Below are positions 5,271 to 36,458 of a stretch of DNA of 39,497 nucleotides, in pieces. The stretch lies in the UHGV virus genome UHGV-0087833, one strand, 5' to 3'. The notes under the pieces were generated by a model that saw nothing but the letters and a program-made list of their open reading frames with translations, was not told the DNA's origin and searched no databases. Source of the DNA: a virus. The position numbers were made by a program, and so were the translations under genes. Each line of letters begins with the position of its first letter. The first letter of the stretch is position 1.

Positions 5271-5374
5271 GTTAAATCTCCAGATAGTCGCAGCACCCGT
5301 TGCGCCGCATATCTGGTTATTCTATTACCTGAAAAACCACATATGGATAGAAAGACTGTAAATACGAATAGATA

Positions 5375-5389
5375 TTACCTTTCGGGTAA
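5375..5389. promoter_or_regulatory. Operator palindrome TTACC-tttcg-GGTAA (site 1)
   Basis: Perfect 5+5 inverted repeat with 5-bp spacer between divergent tailspike and ant-operon starts. Confidence 0.6.
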
Positions 5390-5426: not shown

Positions 5427-5446
5427 TACTGTATAAATATACAGTT
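5427..5446. promoter_or_regulatory. LexA (SOS) box TACTGTATAAATATACAGTT
   Basis: CTGT-N8-ACAG with AT-rich centre, about 20 bp upstream of the first antirepressor-like gene. Confidence 0.8.
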
Positions 5447-5465: not shown

Positions 5466-5723
5466 ATGCAGCAGTATCACTATCCACTGGAAGACGGATT
5501 TACCGAAAGGATTCACACGCCGGGAGGCGTCAGGTCACTGGTGGAGGGATCGCACTTGATGAAATTACTCCGGGATCTCGATAAGGATGGATTTAATGTC
5601 GATGGCCCACTTGCCGAACTGACTGCACTGATTAACTACGTCACCAGCTCACAGATGTCTATGCGGGATCTGCAAACACATCTCGACTATTGTGCCGAAC
5701 AATTACGAAAACAAACCAGATAA
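5466..5723 (+). CDS. Antirepressor C-terminal-domain paralog (stand-alone)
   Basis: 85 aa; clearly similar to the C-terminal 50 aa of the downstream Ant (LMKLLRDLDKDGFNVDG...DLQTHLDYC vs LMNLLNQLQEDGHDVSG...DIQTHAEYI); GGAGAA RBS. Confidence 0.65.
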   Translation: MQQYHYPLEDGFTERIHTPGGVRSLVEGSHLMKLLRDLDKDGFNVDGPLAELTALINYVTSSQMSMRDLQTHLDYCAEQLRKQTR

Positions 5724-5754: not shown

Positions 5755-5769
5755 TTACCTTTTCGGTAA
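5755..5769. promoter_or_regulatory. Operator palindrome TTACC-ttttc-GGTAA (site 2)
   Basis: Perfect inverted repeat just downstream of the Ant-C paralog stop. Confidence 0.6.
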
Positions 5770-5855: not shown

Positions 5856-5887
5856 CACATATGCCGCATAAGCGGTTTTTTTATGTG
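5856..5887 (+). terminator. Hairpin plus T7 run inside the ant leader (intrinsic terminator/attenuator candidate)
   Basis: CACATA...CCGC-ataa-GCGG-TTTTTTT-ATGTG; upstream hairpins at about 5803-5826 and 5827-5844. Confidence 0.45.
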
Positions 5888-6035: not shown

Positions 6036-6722
6036 ATGACTGCTAACGTAACCCCATCTGTTTTTCATTTTGAATCAGAAGCCACCATTCGAGCCATTGT
6101 TATTGATGGAAATCCTTGGTTTGTTGCCAAAGACGTTATTAAAGCTCTTCAACTGACAAACCCCACTATGTCAATAAAATCTCTTGATGATGATGAAAGG
6201 GCTAAATTTAACTTAGGCCGTCAAGGTGAAACCAATATTATCAACGAGTCAGGCCTCTACACACTGATCCTCCGCTGCCGCGACGCAGTGACACCAGGCA
6301 CTATCCCCTACCGCTTTCGTAAATGGGTTACAGGTGAGGTTCTTCCTCAGATCCGCCGCACCGGAAGTTACATTAAAAACTCGCTCCCGCAGGAAGAACG
6401 CATAAAGATAGTTGCCGACCAGGTAGCCAACGCCACAGCATCAGCAGTGATGCAGGCAATGAAGATAGAGAACAAAACCTACAGTGCCCCACTGAAGCCC
6501 GGCTACCGCAGCCTGATTCATTCTCCGTCTGGTGTTCTCGGCCTGACGGAGAACTCACTGCTGATGAATCTGCTGAACCAGTTACAGGAAGACGGGCACG
6601 ACGTATCGGGCGCGGCGGCGGAGCTGACCACCATGTTCTGCTACATTGTTGGTGTGAGCAAATGCCTGCGTGATATCCAGACCCACGCGGAGTACATCAA
6701 CGACAAGGCTGGGTTCTTCTGA
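6036..6722 (+). CDS. ant: Antirepressor Ant (Bro-N domain plus Ant C-terminal domain)
   Basis: Bro-N signature (GNPWFVAKDVIKAL...LDDDE...ESGLYTLIL...FRKWVTGEVLPQIRRTGSY); start at internal ATG 6036 with AAAGG RBS. Confidence 0.85.
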   Translation: MTANVTPSVFHFESEATIRAIVIDGNPWFVAKDVIKALQLTNPTMSIKSLDDDERAKFNLGRQGETNIINESGLYTLILRCRDAVTPGTIPYRFRKWVTGEVLPQIRRTGSYIKNSLPQEERIKIVADQVANATASAVMQAMKIENKTYSAPLKPGYRSLIHSPSGVLGLTENSLLMNLLNQLQEDGHDVSGAAAELTTMFCYIVGVSKCLRDIQTHAEYINDKAGFF

Positions 6723-19762: not shown

Positions 19763-20200
19763 TTAGCCGGTTACTTTGGAGCGGATCGGATACGGCGTAT
19801 TTGCATCAACATCCAGGTTAATGCCGGAAGTGAATTTGCCGGCCGTTAGTGGGCCAGTTGCGACGGAGTAGTTAACACGCAGATATCGCTGAACACCGGC
19901 AGGCACCTTTGCAGAAACAACTCGTTTACCTGCTGTCAGGGTAGCCTTTGCCAGTGCGCCACTATCATAAATAGTGGACCATGAGCTGTTATTCTCACTC
20001 GTCTGCAACTGGATGTTTACAGTTGCCTCACCACTTGCCGTGGCGGCTTCGTTAACCAGCGCCCAAAACTCAAGCGGGTAACCCACGCCGATATCGCGAC
20101 GATTTCCATCAATTGGACCGAGATCGATTACGTCAGTAGAAGCCGCGGTATCAGTTACCGCCTGTGCTTCGGAGAACATCAACAGTTTGTCGGTGATCAT
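19763..20200 (-). CDS. Hypothetical capsid-associated protein (decoration-like)
   Basis: 145 aa immediately downstream of major capsid gene. Confidence 0.4.
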   Translation of the reverse strand: MITDKLLMFSEAQAVTDTAASTDVIDLGPIDGNRRDIGVGYPLEFWALVNEAATASGEATVNIQLQTSENNSSWSTIYDSGALAKATLTAGKRVVSAKVPAGVQRYLRVNYSVATGPLTAGKFTSGINLDVDANTPYPIRSKVTG

Positions 20201-24144: not shown

Positions 24145-24234
24145 ATCAATGACTCCGTACGCAATTAAATCATTACCAATTTAACCACATATGATTTATT
24201 TATCGTAGAATGTTGACATTTAACGCGTGAATTA

Positions 24235-24249
24235 TTACCTTTCAGGTAA
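24235..24249. promoter_or_regulatory. Operator palindrome TTACC-tttca-GGTAA (site 4) next to TTGACA
   Basis: Perfect inverted repeat; TTGACA at 24213-24218. Confidence 0.55.
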
Positions 24250-24571: not shown

Positions 24572-24648
24572 GTGGCATTAGCTCAGTCGGACAGAGCAAC
24601 CGCCTTCTAAGCGGTTGGTCGCAGGTTCGAATCCTGCATGCCACGCCA
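24572..24648 (+). tRNA. tRNA-Arg (anticodon UCU, reads AGA)
   Basis: 7-bp acceptor stem GTGGCAT/ATGCCAC, T-loop GGTTCGAATCC, anticodon loop CTTCTAA, encoded CCA. Confidence 0.9.
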
Positions 24649-25308: not shown

Positions 25309-26784
25309 TTAAGCATAGGGATCGTAATCTGTGATGGCCTTGCCTTGCTGGTTCTGCTGCCCGGGAATTCGCAGACGCTTCGACACAGGGAACGCAAACG
25401 TCAGCAGTAGCGCATCGCCTTTACCAGGCGAACGCCCAAGCCGCTCCTTGATATCTTCCTTCGGTTCGATAACGATTTTACCGTCCACTCGAACTTTGTA
25501 CTCTGCCGCCGACAGATCGTCCGCTGTTTCCTGGTCATCCAGCATCCCGCCCAGCCTCAGCCATGTCTTGCATGAGTTGAACATCTCCCCACGCTTGTTG
25601 AGCATCTGCTGGTCAGTAGACGCGCCACCGAACGGAACAAGTTGCCATGTACGACCCCAGCCGTCACCGATTGACTTCAAACCGGTTCCGTAACCGAAGT
25701 CGATGAACACCGCGTCAGCCTGATACTGGTCTTCAAAGTCAGCGATACGCTTCGCCATAATCAGATCGTCGGTAGTCTTGTTGCCAGTCCACAGCACCTT
25801 ACTGTGTAGCCCCTGCCGCAGGTATATCACAGCGTCATCAACGCCGGAGTATGCCGGGTCAACGCCGATTATCACCGGAGCATGTGCAACCTGCGCAGCG
25901 GTGACCACCCGTTTCATTGCCTCGTCAGTAAGTCCGGTAGGGATAAACTGCAATTCAGATGCATCCGGGAATATGCCGCGCACACGGATTTTAACGAAGT
26001 CGCTGTCTTCCCCGTAGTCATCAACCCATTTCTGCAACTGCTGTTTGTTAGTGCCTTCCACCGTCCGGCTGTCAATCTGCGCAGTTTTCCAGCGGTGTTT
26101 ATATTTGCGGAAACATTCGCGGAAACGCCCGGTGTTACGTGTAGGGTTTCCGAACGCCACCCAGATAATCTCAGTGTCTTCGTCCGTAAGCGCACCCTCA
26201 GCAACTTCCCACACCAGATCCGCAATGTTCGACGCTTCATCGAATACCACGATGATGCGTTTGCGCTCGTTGTGTAGTCCGGCGAATGCCTCAGTGTTGT
26301 GCTCAGACCAGGGGATTGCGTCAGCTCGCCACCGCTTGTCGTGCCCAGGATCATTGCTGTACATCGCGGTAGCGGTACAGGTAAACCAGTCTTTCGTGAT
26401 AGCAAGGTTCGACCACTTGATAATTTCCGGCCAGGTCTTCGTTCGTAGCTGGTTGTCGGTGTTGGCGGTCACCACGACCTTACAATCCTCGCAAGTGGAC
26501 ATGCCCCAGTTGATCAGCATTGAGATGAATGCGGATTTACCAATACCGTGACCAGAAGCGCGTGCCAGCATAAGCGGCTGATAGCGCGTCGCTGGATTCT
26601 GCAGGTGATCACGTATCTCTCGGAACGCATCAGCCTGCCACTGACGTGGGCCGGTAGCATGTGCCAGTTCAGTCCCTTCTTCCCCCCACGGGAACGCATA
26701 GAGGGCATAGCCAAGCGGATCGTGAGTGAACCCTGCAATATCCTCGATCAACTGCTCTTCAGGAGATAACGCTGTATCTGTCAC
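25309..26784 (-). CDS. Terminase large subunit
   Basis: 491 aa; Walker A-like ASGHGIGKS; acidic nuclease-type C-terminal half. Confidence 0.9.
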   Translation of the reverse strand: MTDTALSPEEQLIEDIAGFTHDPLGYALYAFPWGEEGTELAHATGPRQWQADAFREIRDHLQNPATRYQPLMLARASGHGIGKSAFISMLINWGMSTCEDCKVVVTANTDNQLRTKTWPEIIKWSNLAITKDWFTCTATAMYSNDPGHDKRWRADAIPWSEHNTEAFAGLHNERKRIIVVFDEASNIADLVWEVAEGALTDEDTEIIWVAFGNPTRNTGRFRECFRKYKHRWKTAQIDSRTVEGTNKQQLQKWVDDYGEDSDFVKIRVRGIFPDASELQFIPTGLTDEAMKRVVTAAQVAHAPVIIGVDPAYSGVDDAVIYLRQGLHSKVLWTGNKTTDDLIMAKRIADFEDQYQADAVFIDFGYGTGLKSIGDGWGRTWQLVPFGGASTDQQMLNKRGEMFNSCKTWLRLGGMLDDQETADDLSAAEYKVRVDGKIVIEPKEDIKERLGRSPGKGDALLLTFAFPVSKRLRIPGQQNQQGKAITDYDPYA

Positions 26785-27377
26785 TGATTGCCATCCTGAC
26801 GTTCTTTCAGTCTCTTCCTGGCTGCCGCTATGCGATCAGCAATTGTCACATTCACATTAACATCCAGGCGTTCTTTGAACGCGTTGACATCAACATGCTT
26901 ACCAATCAGCTCAAGGTTCTTCACCTTGTCAGGCCATTTAATTTTTTTGAGGATTGTCTCTATCGAATCCTCGTTCATGTTCATGATGGTCGATGACAGA
27001 TCAAAGCCGCTAAGCGTAGTGCGCCAGATTTTCGGCCACTCACGGATTGGTTTAAGGCTCCCATCGTCGTTGAGGATGTCGATCACGTCCATCTGGTCGA
27101 TCTCCACCAGGCGCATGAGAACGTAATCAGCACTGACGCGCATTCGTTTGTTGCGCTCCTCCATCAACTCGGCAATCCGTTTTTGAATGCGTTCATCGCG
27201 CATCATGACACTAGCTTTAACTGCCGCTGTATTTGGAGAGAATCCTGCGTTAATCGCTGCCTGAGTCTGATTTTCAGGCGTTTTGATGTATGACTGGCAA
27301 TAAGCCTCCTGCATTGCTGTTAGTGGCTTAAATTGCGTTGATTTGCGTTTATAGGTTTTAGGTTCAGCAGGCATCAT
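26781..27377 (-). CDS. Terminase small subunit
   Basis: N-terminal LTAMQEAYCQSYIKTPENQTQAAINAGFSP motif; start at ATG 27377 (GGTGG RBS). Confidence 0.8.
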   Translation of the reverse strand: MMPAEPKTYKRKSTQFKPLTAMQEAYCQSYIKTPENQTQAAINAGFSPNTAAVKASVMMRDERIQKRIAELMEERNKRMRVSADYVLMRLVEIDQMDVIDILNDDGSLKPIREWPKIWRTTLSGFDLSSTIMNMNEDSIETILKKIKWPDKVKNLELIGKHVDVNAFKERLDVNVNVTIADRIAAARKRLKERQDGNQ

Positions 27378-27384
27378 AACCACC

Positions 27385-27416
27385 GTGGTAATAGTTACCG
27401 TTGTGGTAATAGTACC
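27385..27416. repeat. Tandem repeat GTGGTAATAGT(T)ACC x2 just upstream of terS
   Basis: Two near-identical 14-15-bp copies, each an internal GGTAA-tag-TTACC palindrome. Confidence 0.6.
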
Positions 27417-27420
27417 ATGC

Positions 27421-27446
27421 AAAATAAAGCCGCCATAGTTGGCGGC
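27421..27446 (-). terminator. Rho-independent terminator upstream of terS on the late-operon strand
   Basis: GCCGCCA-acta-TGGCGGC followed on the minus strand by TTTATTTT. Confidence 0.6.
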
Positions 27447-27487
27447 AGTATTCAAAACCCATCAAATTCATCATGCATAATCTACTC

Positions 27488-31046: not shown

Positions 31047-31061
31047 TTACCTCTGAGGTAA
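31047..31061. promoter_or_regulatory. Operator palindrome TTACC-tctga-GGTAA (site 5), 3 bp from the start codon
   Basis: On the coding strand reads TTACCTCAGAGGTAAATCATG; right half coincides with the SD-like GAGGT. Confidence 0.55.
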
Positions 31062-31108
31062 TTAAAAACCACATAAGACACGAAATCAATAGAGTTTAGA
31101 ATATTTTA

Positions 31109-31123
31109 TTACCTAACAGGTAA
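31109..31123. promoter_or_regulatory. Operator palindrome TTACC-taaca-GGTAA (site 6)
   Basis: Perfect inverted repeat in the 117-bp gap between P-like and DUF1064-like genes. Confidence 0.55.
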
Positions 31124-33124: not shown

Positions 33125-33355
33125 TCATGAGTAGAAGAAGTATGCCAGTTCTGCTTTTGAGCGCAGCCATTGTCTTGATTTACAGGCTTTAAAAAGCCCA
33201 TTCATCAATACCTTACCTGGCATTTTGCGCTTACCTGTTAAGTGAGTCTGGATATAGTGACTCGTCGTTCCGGCTTCCTGTGCGAAGGCTTCACGCTCAT
33301 CCGGAGTAAGTGCAAGCCAGTGCTTTTTGAAATCGAAATGTCCGTTATCGCTCAT
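33125..33355 (-). CDS. Cro-like HTH protein, first gene of rightward lytic operon
   Basis: 76 aa; HTH-like AFAQEAGTTSHYIQTHL; divergent from repressor across the operator cluster. Confidence 0.55.
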   Translation of the reverse strand: MSDNGHFDFKKHWLALTPDEREAFAQEAGTTSHYIQTHLTGKRKMPGKVLMNGLFKACKSRQWLRSKAELAYFFYS

Positions 33356-33391
33356 AGCTATTGCCTGATATTTATTTCAGATAATAAATAT

Positions 33392-33406
33392 TCACCTATA
33401 AGGTAA
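33392..33406. promoter_or_regulatory. Operator TCACC-tataa-GGTAA (site 8, OR-like cluster)
   Basis: Near-perfect palindrome in the divergent intergenic region. Confidence 0.55.
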
Positions 33407-33422
33407 CAAAAATCAAGGATAG

Positions 33423-33437
33423 TTACCCATGAGGTGC
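33423..33437. promoter_or_regulatory. Operator TTACC-catga-GGTGC (site 9, OR-like cluster)
   Basis: Imperfect palindrome 17 bp from site 10. Confidence 0.5.
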
Positions 33438-33439
33438 AT

Positions 33440-33454
33440 TTACCTGTTGGGTAA
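33440..33454. promoter_or_regulatory. Operator TTACC-tgttg-GGTAA (site 10, OR-like cluster)
   Basis: Perfect palindrome about 55 bp upstream of the repressor start. Confidence 0.6.
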
Positions 33455-33509
33455 TATTGCTTTAAATTGAATCATCTTCTGATTCAGATATGAGGCGATT
33501 TTCCAGAAA

Positions 33510-34094
33510 ATGAAAAGTATCCAGGACGTCCGCAGGCAAAATCTCAACGACTTGATCGACCGTGAATTCAATGGTGTTCAGACGCGGATGGCTGAAAAAC
33601 TTGGAACTCAGGCAAATCTGGTAAACCGCTGGGCTCTTGGCAAGAAGGTTATCGGCGACCAGGTTGCGCGAAAAATTGAAGCTGCCGCCAATAAACCCCG
33701 TAACTGGCTTGATATCGATCGCTCGCTTTCTCAGGAAGGTTTTCAGCCTGTCGGACCAAGCGACATTGGTCAACTGGCGGCTCACAACCTGGAACGCTGG
33801 ATGAGCGAAAGCCGCGACCTTTCAACGCAGGGAAAACTTCACCGCGCATCCGGCGTCGCCCAGGTAACAATCAGCCGCCTGTTAAACAATGAGGTCAGCG
33901 TTTCCATTTCCACCCTGGAGAATGTTGCATCCGCATTTGGGCGTCACGGATATGAATTACTGATTCACCCGCACGACCCCGCGACTATCAACTATGACCG
34001 CTCGCGCTACGCATTGTTACCTGAAACAGAGAAGGCAAAGATCGAAAGTTACATTGAATTTGTCATCAACCAGAACGAAAAAAATAAACAATAA
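33510..34094 (+). CDS. Prophage repressor candidate, tandem HTH_XRE domains, no S24 peptidase domain
   Basis: Two HTH-like segments (QTRMAEKLGTQANLVNRW and HRASGVAQVTISRLL); no Ser/Lys autocleavage module; position equals lambda cI. Confidence 0.6.
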   Translation: MKSIQDVRRQNLNDLIDREFNGVQTRMAEKLGTQANLVNRWALGKKVIGDQVARKIEAAANKPRNWLDIDRSLSQEGFQPVGPSDIGQLAAHNLERWMSESRDLSTQGKLHRASGVAQVTISRLLNNEVSVSISTLENVASAFGRHGYELLIHPHDPATINYDRSRYALLPETEKAKIESYIEFVINQNEKNKQ

Positions 34095-34116
34095 AATCAT
34101 ATTTTTCAGTAAGTAA

Positions 34117-34138
34117 GCCGCCTTCTGGCGGCTTTTTT
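34117..34138 (+). terminator. Rho-independent terminator after the repressor gene
   Basis: GCCGCC-ttct-GGCGGC followed by TTTTTT. Confidence 0.8.
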
Positions 34139-34151
34139 ATTGCTTATTTGA

Positions 34152-34166
34152 TTACCTAACGGGTAA
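34152..34166. promoter_or_regulatory. Operator TTACC-taacg-GGTAA (site 11, OL-like)
   Basis: Perfect palindrome upstream of TTGACA at 34186-34191. Confidence 0.6.
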
Positions 34167-34213
34167 TTTTTTTAACTCATATCTATTGACATCAAACCAA
34201 ATACGCATAATCA

Positions 34214-34228
34214 TTACCTCAACGGTAA
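34214..34228. promoter_or_regulatory. Operator TTACC-tcaac-GGTAA (site 12, OL-like) at the leftward-operon promoter
   Basis: Perfect palindrome downstream of TTGACA; extra GGTAA half-site at 34237. Confidence 0.6.
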
Positions 34229-34402: not shown

Positions 34403-34702
34403 ATGAACGTTAATCAGCAGAAAAATCTTCAAAAAATCATGCTGGCATTCGACAAGGACTACCGCCTGTCAGAACAGCTATATGACCGACAAGTTGAACT
34501 GATTGAGAGCATCCGACTTCATCAACTGTCCTCAACTTTCGACGTTGTAACAGGCAAAGGCGTTCGTCAGGAAGTACTGGAGGCTGCTAAAGACAGCCCT
34601 GAGTTCGAAGAACTGATGGATGCCTATCGGCGAGAGGCAATGGCAATTATCGCCCGCTGGGATCTGGCGGATCAGCTTGATGGACAGAGGGACGCGGCAT
34701 GA
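34403..34702 (+). CDS. Hypothetical protein upstream of exonuclease
   Basis: 99 aa from ATG 34403 (GGAGGG RBS); stop overlaps exonuclease start (ATGA). Confidence 0.5.
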   Translation: MNVNQQKNLQKIMLAFDKDYRLSEQLYDRQVELIESIRLHQLSSTFDVVTGKGVRQEVLEAAKDSPEFEELMDAYRREAMAIIARWDLADQLDGQRDAA

Positions 34703-35520
34703 AACCGGGAATTTATTTCGACATCAGCAACGAAGACTACCACGCCGGTGACGGCGTGAGTAAGTCGCAACTGGACATGGTTGCCAAGAATCCGGCGCTT
34801 CTTAAATGGGTTCAGGCAGCACCAGAAGACGAAGAGAAAAAGTCTGCACTGGATATGGGAACCGCATTGCACTGTCTGCTTCTGGAGCCTGGAGAGTTCG
34901 ACAAACGCTTCATTGTTTCACCGAAATTCGATCGTCGGACGAAACAAGGTAAAGCTGACGAAGAGGCATTTCTTCGTGATGTGGCGGATATGGGGATTAC
35001 GGTACTTGATGCCGAGCAGTGGCGGAAACTGGAGCTGATGCGTGATAGCGCAATGGCTCATCCGGCGGCACGCTGGATGTTGGAAGCACCTGGTTACTGC
35101 GAAGCATCAATGTACTGGAACGATGAAGAGACGGGTGAGTTGTGCCGAATTCGTCCAGACAAATGGCTGAACGAGCACAACGTGATCGTCGACGTGAAAA
35201 AGGTTGCAGATATGGACCGTTTTGCACGCCACATCGAGGAATTCCGCTACCACGTGCAGGACGCAATGTACCGCGAAGGCGCAATGAGGGTTACTGGTCA
35301 GCCGCATGGTTTTTTCTTTCTTGCCGTGAGCGAAAGCATTGATTGTGGTCGCTATCCGGTACGCGTGTTCGAGCTGGATGCGCAGGATGTCGATGCCGGG
35401 CACGCTCTGTTCCGCCGGGATCTGAATACCTATCACGAATGCCGCATCAATGATGAATGGGGCGGTGTGGAAATCATTAAACGCCATGAGTGGGCACGCA
35501 AACAGGATATGTACATATGA
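34699..35520 (+). CDS. PD-(D/E)XK-type recombination exonuclease (partner of RecT)
   Basis: 273 aa, translationally coupled to RecT-like gene; family from motif recall. Confidence 0.65.
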   Translation: MKPGIYFDISNEDYHAGDGVSKSQLDMVAKNPALLKWVQAAPEDEEKKSALDMGTALHCLLLEPGEFDKRFIVSPKFDRRTKQGKADEEAFLRDVADMGITVLDAEQWRKLELMRDSAMAHPAARWMLEAPGYCEASMYWNDEETGELCRIRPDKWLNEHNVIVDVKKVADMDRFARHIEEFRYHVQDAMYREGAMRVTGQPHGFFFLAVSESIDCGRYPVRVFELDAQDVDAGHALFRRDLNTYHECRINDEWGGVEIIKRHEWARKQDMYI

Positions 35521-36458
35521 GCAACGACATCGTAAACATCAACGCACCAGTAGACACAGCAATCGCTGGAACTGCTGCAACTATTTTCAGCCCAGACGGC
35601 TTGAACCAACTGATGAAATTCGCCGAGGTAATGGCGCAAAGCCGCGTAACGGTACCGGCGCACCTCGCCGGGAAACCAGCTGATTGCATGGCCGTGGCAA
35701 TGCAGGCTGCGCAGTGGGGAATGAACCCGTTTGCCGTGGCTCAGAAAACCCATGTTGTGAACGGCACGCTAGGTTATGAAGCCCAATTAGTAAACGCAGT
35801 TATCTCAACGATGTCGCCAACAAAAGATCGCATCAACTACGAGTGGTTCGGGCCGTGGGAACGCGTGATCGGTAAGTTTGTTGAGAAAACATCCAAAAAC
35901 GGCAATCCATATATCGCACCAGGCTGGACTCTAAAAGACGAAGAAGGCTGCGGTGTTCGCGTATGGGCAACCATGAAGGGCGAGGATCAACCTCGAGTGC
36001 TTGAGTTAATGCTGTCTCAAGCACAGGTAAGAAACTCCACACTTTGGGCCAGTGATCCGAAACAACAACTCGCATACCTTGCGACAAAACGCTGGTCTCG
36101 CTTGCACTGTCCTGACGTAATCATGGGCGTCTACACACCAGACGAATTACAGGAAACGGCACCGCGCGTTGAGCGAGACATTACTCCGCAAACGACCACT
36201 GCTGCGGGAATGAACAGTCTGATCAACGCTAAACCAGTGAAAAAGCCTGATGAGCAAACGCGTAAAGCGGATAGCCGTGATCCAGAAGAAATGCTGATGG
36301 CCTTTACCAGCGCAGCGATGAATTACAGCACTGTCTCCGAACTGGATAAGGCTTACAAATACATTGCACAAAAACTTTCAGATGATGACGAACTGCTGGC
36401 AAAAGCCACCGACGTTTACAGCGTTCGTCGGGAAGAATTAAACGAAACATCTATGTAA
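35517..36458 (+). CDS. recT: RecT-family single-strand annealing protein
   Basis: 313 aa from ATG 35517 (ATGA overlap with exonuclease stop). Confidence 0.7.
   Translation: MSNDIVNINAPVDTAIAGTAATIFSPDGLNQLMKFAEVMAQSRVTVPAHLAGKPADCMAVAMQAAQWGMNPFAVAQKTHVVNGTLGYEAQLVNAVISTMSPTKDRINYEWFGPWERVIGKFVEKTSKNGNPYIAPGWTLKDEEGCGVRVWATMKGEDQPRVLELMLSQAQVRNSTLWASDPKQQLAYLATKRWSRLHCPDVIMGVYTPDELQETAPRVERDITPQTTTAAGMNSLINAKPVKKPDEQTRKADSRDPEEMLMAFTSAAMNYSTVSELDKAYKYIAQKLSDDDELLAKATDVYSVRREELNETSM

Follow-up and report, generated by a model that had tools for sequence, protein, structure and literature searches.

The gene at 33510-34094 of the window, a stretch of 39,497 nucleotides of viral DNA analysed here at its full length, raises the question of how a repressor carrying two helix-turn-helix (HTH) motifs in one polypeptide recognizes its operators. 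According to the original prediction, the protein is an immunity repressor with a tandem pair of XRE-type HTH segments about 100 residues apart and with no oligomerisation or peptidase domain, so that a single chain with two reading heads could contact both halves of a 15-bp palindrome or bridge adjacent operators. The gene and the domains assigned to its product are the following:

33510..34094, + strand, stop codon included: rep, immunity repressor of 194 aa (open reading frame with ATG start; identity and homology matches)
33510..33695, + strand: N-terminal DNA-binding domain, aa 1-62, with predicted HTH helices at aa 24-31 and 35-43 (YdaS/Cro-like HTH, AlphaFold2 helices, homology to SPC32H Rep)
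33696..33761, + strand: flexible linker, aa 63-84 (low pLDDT, poor conservation)
33762..33965, + strand: second XRE-HTH fold, putative equivalent of the middle dimerisation domain (MDD) of SPC32H Rep, aa 85-152 (Pfam HTH_3, 5d4z match, role according to PMC9986798)
33966..34091, + strand: putative C-terminal tetramerisation and Ant-binding domain (CAD, 'TetDloop'), aa 153-194 (homology to the C-terminus of SPC32H Rep, role according to PMC9986798)

The assignment as an immunity repressor is well founded. The protein, Rep, is 100% identical to p40 of Escherichia phage phiV10 and to ORF21 of vB_EcoP_ZX5, and it is found unchanged in about a dozen E. coli phages; the DNA of the rep region is 98.6% identical to that of phiV10 and other Uetakevirus (epsilon15-like) podoviruses. 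Overexpression of ORF21 in the ZX5 study abolished free phage and reduced the endolysin and holin mRNA by 99.97-99.99%, showing that the identical protein blocks lytic growth (PMC9782041). The phiV10 GenBank record describes p40 as a 'putative transcriptional repressor; two helix-turn-helix motifs (PF01381)', and the ZX5 paper assigns DNA binding to the C-terminal HTH of ORF21, from a conserved-domain match only (PMC9782041). At the protein level there is no difference between these two products and Rep, and the roles of the domains are not analysed in those reports. Judged from its sequence, Rep is the SPC32H-type immunity repressor of the epsilon15/phiV10-like podoviruses (genus Uetakevirus), agreeing with that type in every feature open to comparison. 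All of this, from the protein with its pair of HTH motifs to its activity as a repressor and the mechanism of its family, is already known, and the question that the locus poses concerns the division of labour between the two HTH folds.

Both folds are present, as predicted. They are of the XRE type and lie at aa 24-43 and aa 107-125, although the distance between them is about 83 residues rather than 100. Two stretches of Rep match Pfam HTH_3, the stronger being aa 106-147 (E=1.2e-9, 38.5 bits, cut-off 23); at aa 21-61 a Cro/YdaS-like HTH is recognized (E=3e-4), which with 21 bits against a cut-off of 30 for YdaS_toxin remains sub-threshold. The AlphaFold2 (AF2) model of a single chain, built from 40 homologues with a pLDDT of 74 and a pTM of 0.39, consists of two distinct bundles of four to five helices (4-19/24-31/35-43/50-59 and 85-100/107-114/118-125/133-142/147-151), separated by a disordered linker with pLDDT below 50 at aa 63-82. 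Behind the second bundle, the C-terminus is extended at 152-163 and continues in a short helix (164-168) and a long one (172-193); as a monomer, the model carries no information on assembly. In the Foldseek search, 5d50 and 5d4z rank first (TM 0.73 to 5d4z, C-terminal half), followed by XRE HTH proteins, and 3vk0, SinR and ClgR are among the fold neighbours. The N-terminal domain has a net charge of +5 and residues N36, R40 and W41 that are invariant in the 40 homologues, and the net charge of the middle domain is 0. The two HTH domains are not tandem in the sense of a repeat: a tandem duplication was rejected because BLASTP gives no alignment between domain 1 and domain 2. Their helix-3 sequences differ as well.

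The oligomerisation domains that had been thought absent become apparent from the comparison with the repressor of phage SPC32H. Rep aa 1-190 match residues 2-197 of 5d50_A, the 'Repressor' chain in the Rep-Ant complex of SPC32H, over the full length (phmmer, E=4e-42), and SPC32H Rep(92-198), 5d4z, is matched with E=4e-20. The identity amounts to 41.8% over 98% of the query in tblastn, divided into 53% for the N-terminal, 34% (22/64) for the middle and 45% (18/40) for the C-terminal part, and the least conserved segment is the linker (4/16 identical), which in Rep is six residues shorter. The order of the three domains is the same in both proteins. The structures 5D4Z and 5D50 are reportedly the work of Kim et al. 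in PNAS, 2016. In the crystal, the C-terminal half of SPC32H Rep is a homotetramer. PMC9986798 distinguishes in RepSPC32H an N-terminal DNA-binding domain (DBD), the MDD and the C-terminal CAD, a 'TetDloop' that forms tetramers and binds the antirepressor Ant. According to PMC9638917, SPC32H Rep binds DNA as a tetramer, binding by the dimer being weak; the pair of N-terminal domains on one palindrome comes from different Rep dimers, and the Ant tetramer binds two Rep dimers and disrupts the Rep tetramer. The domain roles in SPC32H are taken from the PDB entries and from these two secondary descriptions (PMC9986798, PMC9638917).

A p53-like TetDloop is composed of a short beta-strand, a kinked connection and an alpha-helix, which assemble into a four-chain bundle, and the extended segment and helices at the C-terminus of the monomer model of Rep agree with the description given for RepSPC32H (PMC9986798). 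By homology, domain 2 of Rep (aa ~85-152) is the counterpart of the MDD, and aa 153-194 correspond to the tail for tetramerisation and Ant binding, so the earlier view of a repressor devoid of oligomerisation domains cannot be kept for either stretch. The oligomeric state and the Ant binding of Rep would be those of a protein with which it shares 42% identity, and 22 of 64 residues in the middle domain. A dimeric protein with a single functional HTH had been named in the original prediction as the outcome that would speak against it, and this is in essence what the SPC32H homologue is. RepSPC32H is also explicitly grouped with Rco of the Bacillus plasmid pLS20 in PMC9986798. Rco resembles Rep in its N-terminal HTH DBD and in two features that are putative in Rep, a C-terminal strand-helix tetramerisation domain (p53-type, 'TetDloop') and the control of its activity by a protein antagonist; in contrast to Rep, it has no middle HTH-fold dimerisation domain, and no sequence match was detected between the two.

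The sites that Rep would have to read, and the elements around them, are arranged in the window as follows:

33392..33406, unstranded: operator OR-1 (TCACCTATAAGGTAA), lying in the leftward promoter predicted for the cro-like gene, position conserved in five phages
33423..33437, unstranded: operator OR-2 (TTACCCATGAGGTGC), with two mismatches, where SPC32H and epsilon15 have a perfect site
33440..33454, unstranded: operator OR-3 (TTACCTGTTGGGTAA), 17 bp from OR-2
33125..33355, - strand: cro-like gene, 76 aa, divergent from rep (PHROG 35 'transcriptional repressor', E=9e-13; syntenic with phiV10p41 and SPC32H_042)
34115..34144, + strand: intrinsic terminator after rep, with an 8-bp stem, 6 GC pairs and a T-run (annotated terminator in phiV10)
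34152..34228, unstranded: OL-type control region with two operators (34152-34166, 34214-34228) at a distance of 62 bp, which flank the promoter TTGACA-17-AATCAT (34186-34214, + strand)
31047..31123, unstranded: second operator pair with 62-bp spacing (31047-31061, 31109-31123), on either side of the leftward promoter-like TTGATT-17-TTTAAT
5375..5389, unstranded: Rep-type operator, with the tailspike gene on one side and the ant promoter on the other (syntenic site in SPC32H at 20013-20027)

The 15-bp palindromes noticed earlier, including the 17-bp-spaced pair at 33423-33454, are real. With at most one mismatch allowed, the window contains 14 copies of TTACC-N5-GGTAA where shuffles predict 0.62, and of the ten perfect ones, nine are situated outside open reading frames of at least 100 aa. 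The consensus, aTTACCt-N3-aGGTAAt, is a perfect dyad with half-sites 10 bp, or one helical turn, apart. Further sites are located at 5755 and 6795, which together with 5375 stand beside the ant/tailspike promoters, at 24235 and 39296, and at 27377/27395, at the 5' end of the terS open reading frame. The positions of the three OR sites are conserved across five phages, and the equivalent OL sites are annotated as 'protein_bind repressor' in the epsilon15 record. SPC32H possesses 18 such operators (0.52 expected) in the same 3+2/3 layout, with rep divergent from a cro-like gene at the same genomic position. The 17- and 62-bp spacings recur in SPC32H (62-bp pair at 35972/36034), epsilon15, Tyrion and BUCT711; this genome-wide set of operators with conserved pair spacings is possibly worth a follow-up of its own. 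To the left of the cro-like gene lie DnaT/HTH_36 and lambda-P-like replication genes, and to the right of rep the terminator is followed by small genes, a PD-(D/E)XK exonuclease and RecT.

The relatives of the second domain bear directly on the choice of the reading head. A search with Rep aa 86-194 against 1.84 billion representative proteins returned 241 relatives. Among the best 150 of these, about 14 are matched at approximately aa 85-195 of a protein of about 195 aa, while in most the match falls N-terminally in a protein of 100-220 aa with one HTH and a CAD-like tail. Three of the single-HTH proteins (P0095, P0103 and P0106) occupy the immunity position of prophages, next to a divergent small gene; replication genes lie to one side, and in contigs of sufficient length the other side carries small genes and a PDDEXK exonuclease. 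Perfect TTACC-N5-GGTAA sites flank rep in nine of nine close double-HTH loci (including phiV10, SPC32H, Tyrion, BUCT711, epsilon15, P0088 and P0092), and none was found in the seven loci of single-HTH relatives, which carry the second-domain type only; other repeated motifs were seen there by eye. One divergent double-HTH relative in another context and without TTACC sites (P0100) was excluded from this presence/absence argument. As the distant double-HTH relatives P0088 and P0092 retain the motif, co-variation between recognition helix and operator is not informative. The specificity for TTACC thus travels with the N-terminal head, since the motif accompanies the double-HTH loci and is absent from the single-HTH loci; moreover, a perfect dyad calls for two identical heads and not for the two unrelated HTH of one chain. 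It appears from these comparisons that only the first HTH domain of Rep reads DNA, the second acting as a dimerisation module.

The probable means of induction are encoded elsewhere in the window, by the following elements:

5429..5444, unstranded: LexA box CTGTATAAATATACAG, perfect, upstream of ant (SPC32H equivalent CTGTATGTTTATACAG)
5466..5723, + strand: ant, antirepressor, 85 aa (PDB 5d50_E 'Anti-repressor protein', E=1.4e-46; 86.7% identical to SPC32H Ant)
6036..6722, + strand: second antirepressor-like gene, 228 aa, with Bro-N and an Ant-like C-terminal domain (Bro-N E=5e-20; aa 147-223 against 5d50_E, E=1e-13)

The start of ant lies 22 bp downstream of the LexA box, an arrangement alike in SPC32H, where the LexA-controlled ant likewise has the structural genes on one side and the tailspike on the other. 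Both Rep and Ant are found in one shared set of ~35 phage records. Compared with SPC32H, this phage has E. coli as its host and an additional Bro-N/Ant-like gene downstream of ant; since it is built around Bro-N and the ZX5 record gives two Ant-like matches, the gene at 6036-6722 is taken to be the probable counterpart of the ZX5 anti-repressor ORF4. Overexpression of this Bro-N 'anti-repressor' resulted in less lysogeny (PMC9782041). Between the E. coli and the Salmonella phages, Ant is 83-87% identical and Rep 42%; that Ant should be so much more conserved than Rep is unexpected and would count against a tightly co-evolving Rep-Ant pair.

Several alternatives to a repressor with one reading head per chain have to be weighed. 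Were both HTH of a single chain to act as reading heads, on the halves of a palindrome or on adjacent operators and without oligomerisation, this would draw on the two genuine XRE-type folds joined by a flexible linker and on the lack of an S24 or cI-type C-terminal domain. Such a chain is very improbable: the operators are inverted repeats of perfect symmetry whose half-sites stand 10 bp from each other, the two domains have no detectable similarity and differ in helix 3, the second domain is neutral against +5 for the first, and the TTACC motif is missing from the loci of relatives possessing only the second domain. In addition, oligomerisation modules are present, and in the homologue the C-terminal half is a homotetramer in the crystal and the tetramer binds DNA. 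The idea of two heads on one chain is consequently not supported; what survives of the proposed bridging is that a multivalent repressor probably engages more than one operator. The classic position of cI, with a divergent cro-like gene and three operators, might also suggest a lambda-cI/LexA-type repressor inactivated by RecA-stimulated autocleavage. The probability of this is negligible, as Rep fails the test that defines cI/LexA proteins (S24 domain, Ser-Lys dyad, Ala-Gly site): in agreement with what had been noted earlier for the peptidase, the Pfam search gave no Peptidase_S24 match at E<=1, the Rep sequence contains no Ala-Gly or Cys-Gly site (AG or CG dipeptide), and a dedicated LexA-controlled antirepressor is present.

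A further alternative accepts that a Rep tetramer reads TTACC-N5-GGTAA by its N-terminal heads, and adds a contact with DNA by the dimers of the middle domain. This contact would be non-specific or would involve a second, unrecognised site, for instance in the DNA between the operators spaced by 62 bp, and would assist in wrapping or clamping promoters. XRE domains commonly dimerise while binding DNA, and the HTH_3 signature of the middle domain is intact. The middle domain and the tail are, besides, homologous to whole single-HTH prophage repressors, the ancestor of which presumably bound DNA, and the 9-mer AACCACATA occurs only three times in the window, always adjoining an operator. This 9-mer is absent from OR and OL, however, and a k-mer search of the operator-bearing intergenic regions for a second motif, attributable to the middle domain, detected none common to OR and OL. 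The middle domain also lacks a net positive charge, and its helix 3, nearly unchanged in relatives whose loci are without TTACC-N5-GGTAA, is not likely to be a specificity determinant. With its SPC32H counterpart moreover named a dimerisation domain in PMC9986798, a DNA contact by the middle domain is considered unlikely. The account of an N-terminal reader, an MDD, a tetramerising tail and induction through Ant and LexA is, as a whole, regarded as highly probable.

In the mechanism that we propose on this basis, the N-terminal Cro/YdaS-like HTH (aa ~1-62) would be the DNA reader, with two copies from two chains on each TTACC-N5-GGTAA dyad. The second XRE-fold domain (aa ~85-152) would dimerise Rep, and the last ~40 residues would join dimers into tetramers and at the same time provide the docking site of the antirepressor. 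Such a tetramer would hold two pairs of heads on flexible linkers of ~20 residues, allowing two operators to be occupied together, namely the OR pair with its 17-bp spacing or, around early promoters, the pairs spaced by 62 bp. In this way the operons for cro/replication and for recombination would be shut off, along with others. Upon DNA damage, LexA would leave the ant box and Ant would be made, with no RecA-stimulated self-cleavage of the repressor involved; Ant, and probably also the Bro-N/Ant-like protein, would then bind the C-terminal domains of Rep and strip it from DNA. For this particular Rep, tetramer formation, the identity of the reading head and the joint occupancy of paired operators are what we infer from its homologue and from the operator layout. 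The homology, the folds of the domains, the operators and ant with its LexA box come from the sequence analysis itself. The repressor activity is taken from literature on an identical protein, and the oligomeric state and the Ant mechanism would follow those of a homologue that is 42% identical.

The beginning of the rep transcript was considered separately. In accordance with what had been noticed before, no Shine-Dalgarno (SD) sequence is present 5-10 nt before the ATG of rep, the sole GAGG ending 14 nt upstream, and the A-rich leader without SD is common to Tyrion, BUCT711, epsilon15 and SPC32H. The sigma-70 scan of the + strand upstream of rep found no promoter. Two weak candidates were noted by eye, TTGAAT-16-TATGAG at 33467-33494 and GATTTT at 33497-33502, the latter of which would make the transcript leaderless; in the alignment of five phages, neither of them is conserved throughout. 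The rep mRNA may be leaderless.

The same relatives that argue for a single reading head point to the possible origin of Rep. In the prophage repressors with a single HTH and a CAD (P0095, which lies in a complete bacterial chromosome, CP010536.1, as well as P0103 and P0106), the N-terminal ~110 residues align along the whole of Rep aa 85-194 at 40-49% identity. In contrast to Rep, these proteins have no Cro/YdaS-like head and often bear a basic C-terminal tail. The alignment suggests that Rep is a Cro-like head fused onto a complete single-HTH/CAD repressor (aa 85-194), an origin that may deserve further attention. On this view, an enterobacterial lineage would have fused the head onto a widespread type of prophage repressor and thereby acquired the new TTACC specificity. 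A more elaborate form of this scenario, with the ancestral HTH still contacting DNA, for instance between the 62-bp-spaced operators, and two classes of heads clamping promoters, is speculative and unlikely. No description of a fusion origin of Rep was found in the secondary literature on the family that was examined.

The switch formed by these elements resembles those of lambda cI and P22 C2 in that three operators separate the repressor gene from a divergent cro-like gene and in an induction that would likewise depend on SOS. It differs from them in the construction of the repressor, since cI and C2 have an S24 peptidase and a cI C-terminal domain, whereas Rep would rely for its oligomerisation on an XRE fold and a strand-helix tail. 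The Gifsy repressors, in work attributed to Lemire et al. (2011), are said to be induced through a LexA-controlled antirepressor, as would be the case with Rep. For genome annotation, the locus gives reason for caution: the number of HTH motifs in a protein is not the number of its reading heads, as an XRE fold may be recruited as an oligomerisation module. The phages of the phiV10 type serve as typing and reporter phages for E. coli O157, and it is therefore of practical relevance that their lysogeny would be governed by a Rep/Ant/LexA circuit and not by a cleavable cI.

Operators of the type assigned to the immunity repressor Rep (15-bp sites) extend beyond the immunity region and occupy intergenic positions throughout the genome. 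A total of 14 have been identified in the window against 0.62 expected, and 18 in the Salmonella phage SPC32H (L003) against 0.52 expected. Both the 17-bp and the 62-bp spacing of operator pairs are conserved, and the pairs spaced by 62 bp bracket promoter-like sequences. A 9-mer, AACCACATA, accompanies some of these operators; it is present in three copies in the whole window (0.23 expected), each intergenic and no more than about 50 bp from a Rep operator, and in two copies in SPC32H. This 9-mer could be part of a promoter element in common.

Rep-type operators, window starts: 5375, 5755, 6795, 24235, 27377, 27395, 31047, 31109, 33392, 33440, 34152, 34214, 39296
Copies of the 9-mer: 5335-5343, 24183-24191, 31067-31075

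Several genes lie beside these sites or elsewhere in the window.

6036-6722 (+), second antirepressor-like gene, fusion of a Bro-N domain and a diverged Ant-fold copy
24572-24648 (+), tRNA-Arg, anticodon TCT
26781-27455 (-), terS ORF, 224 aa as in the phiV10 annotation
34699-35520 (+), PD-(D/E)XK exonuclease
35490-36458 (+), RecT

The second antirepressor-like gene is located downstream of the antirepressor gene ant. Operator 5755 lies ahead of it, as does a terminator-like hairpin (5863-5876), and the diverged Ant-fold copy spans residues 147-223 of its product. The homologue in phiV10 is p23, whose C-terminus is shorter and different. Ant itself is conserved at 83-87% among phages whose Reps share only 42% identity. 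Upstream of the tRNA-Arg gene is the operator/promoter-like region at 24235; SPC32H, too, has a tRNA-Arg in the syntenic position. In the window the exonuclease and RecT are encoded by two distinct, overlapping ORFs. The phiV10 annotation gives one 586-aa “recET fusion”, and in SPC32H an inserted HNH endonuclease gene separates the two.

Two adjoining operators (27377-27409) fall inside the terS ORF, within ~80 bp of its annotated start. SPC32H has a shorter terS (197 aa), with the operator upstream of it; the real terS start in the window may be a downstream ATG near 27375.

A LexA-like sequence separates the predicted -10 of the leftward promoter from the cro-like gene's start:

33365-33380, CTG-N10-CAG, CTGATATTTATTTCAG

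It is kept in Tyrion as CTGATATTTATGTCAG but is conserved in neither SPC32H nor epsilon15. Each half has CTGA in place of CTGT, and the sequence is therefore probably weak or fortuitous.

The relatives of Rep P0095-P0114 (loci L007-L013) form a large family of prophage proteins of 100-220 aa, composed of one XRE HTH, a CAD-like tail, “INYDxxxYxxLPxxEKxxVExFI”, and, in many cases, a basic low-complexity C-terminus. In prophages (CP010536.1 is one example) their genes occupy the repressor position, and these proteins look like the single-headed form ancestral to Rep's C-terminal two-thirds.
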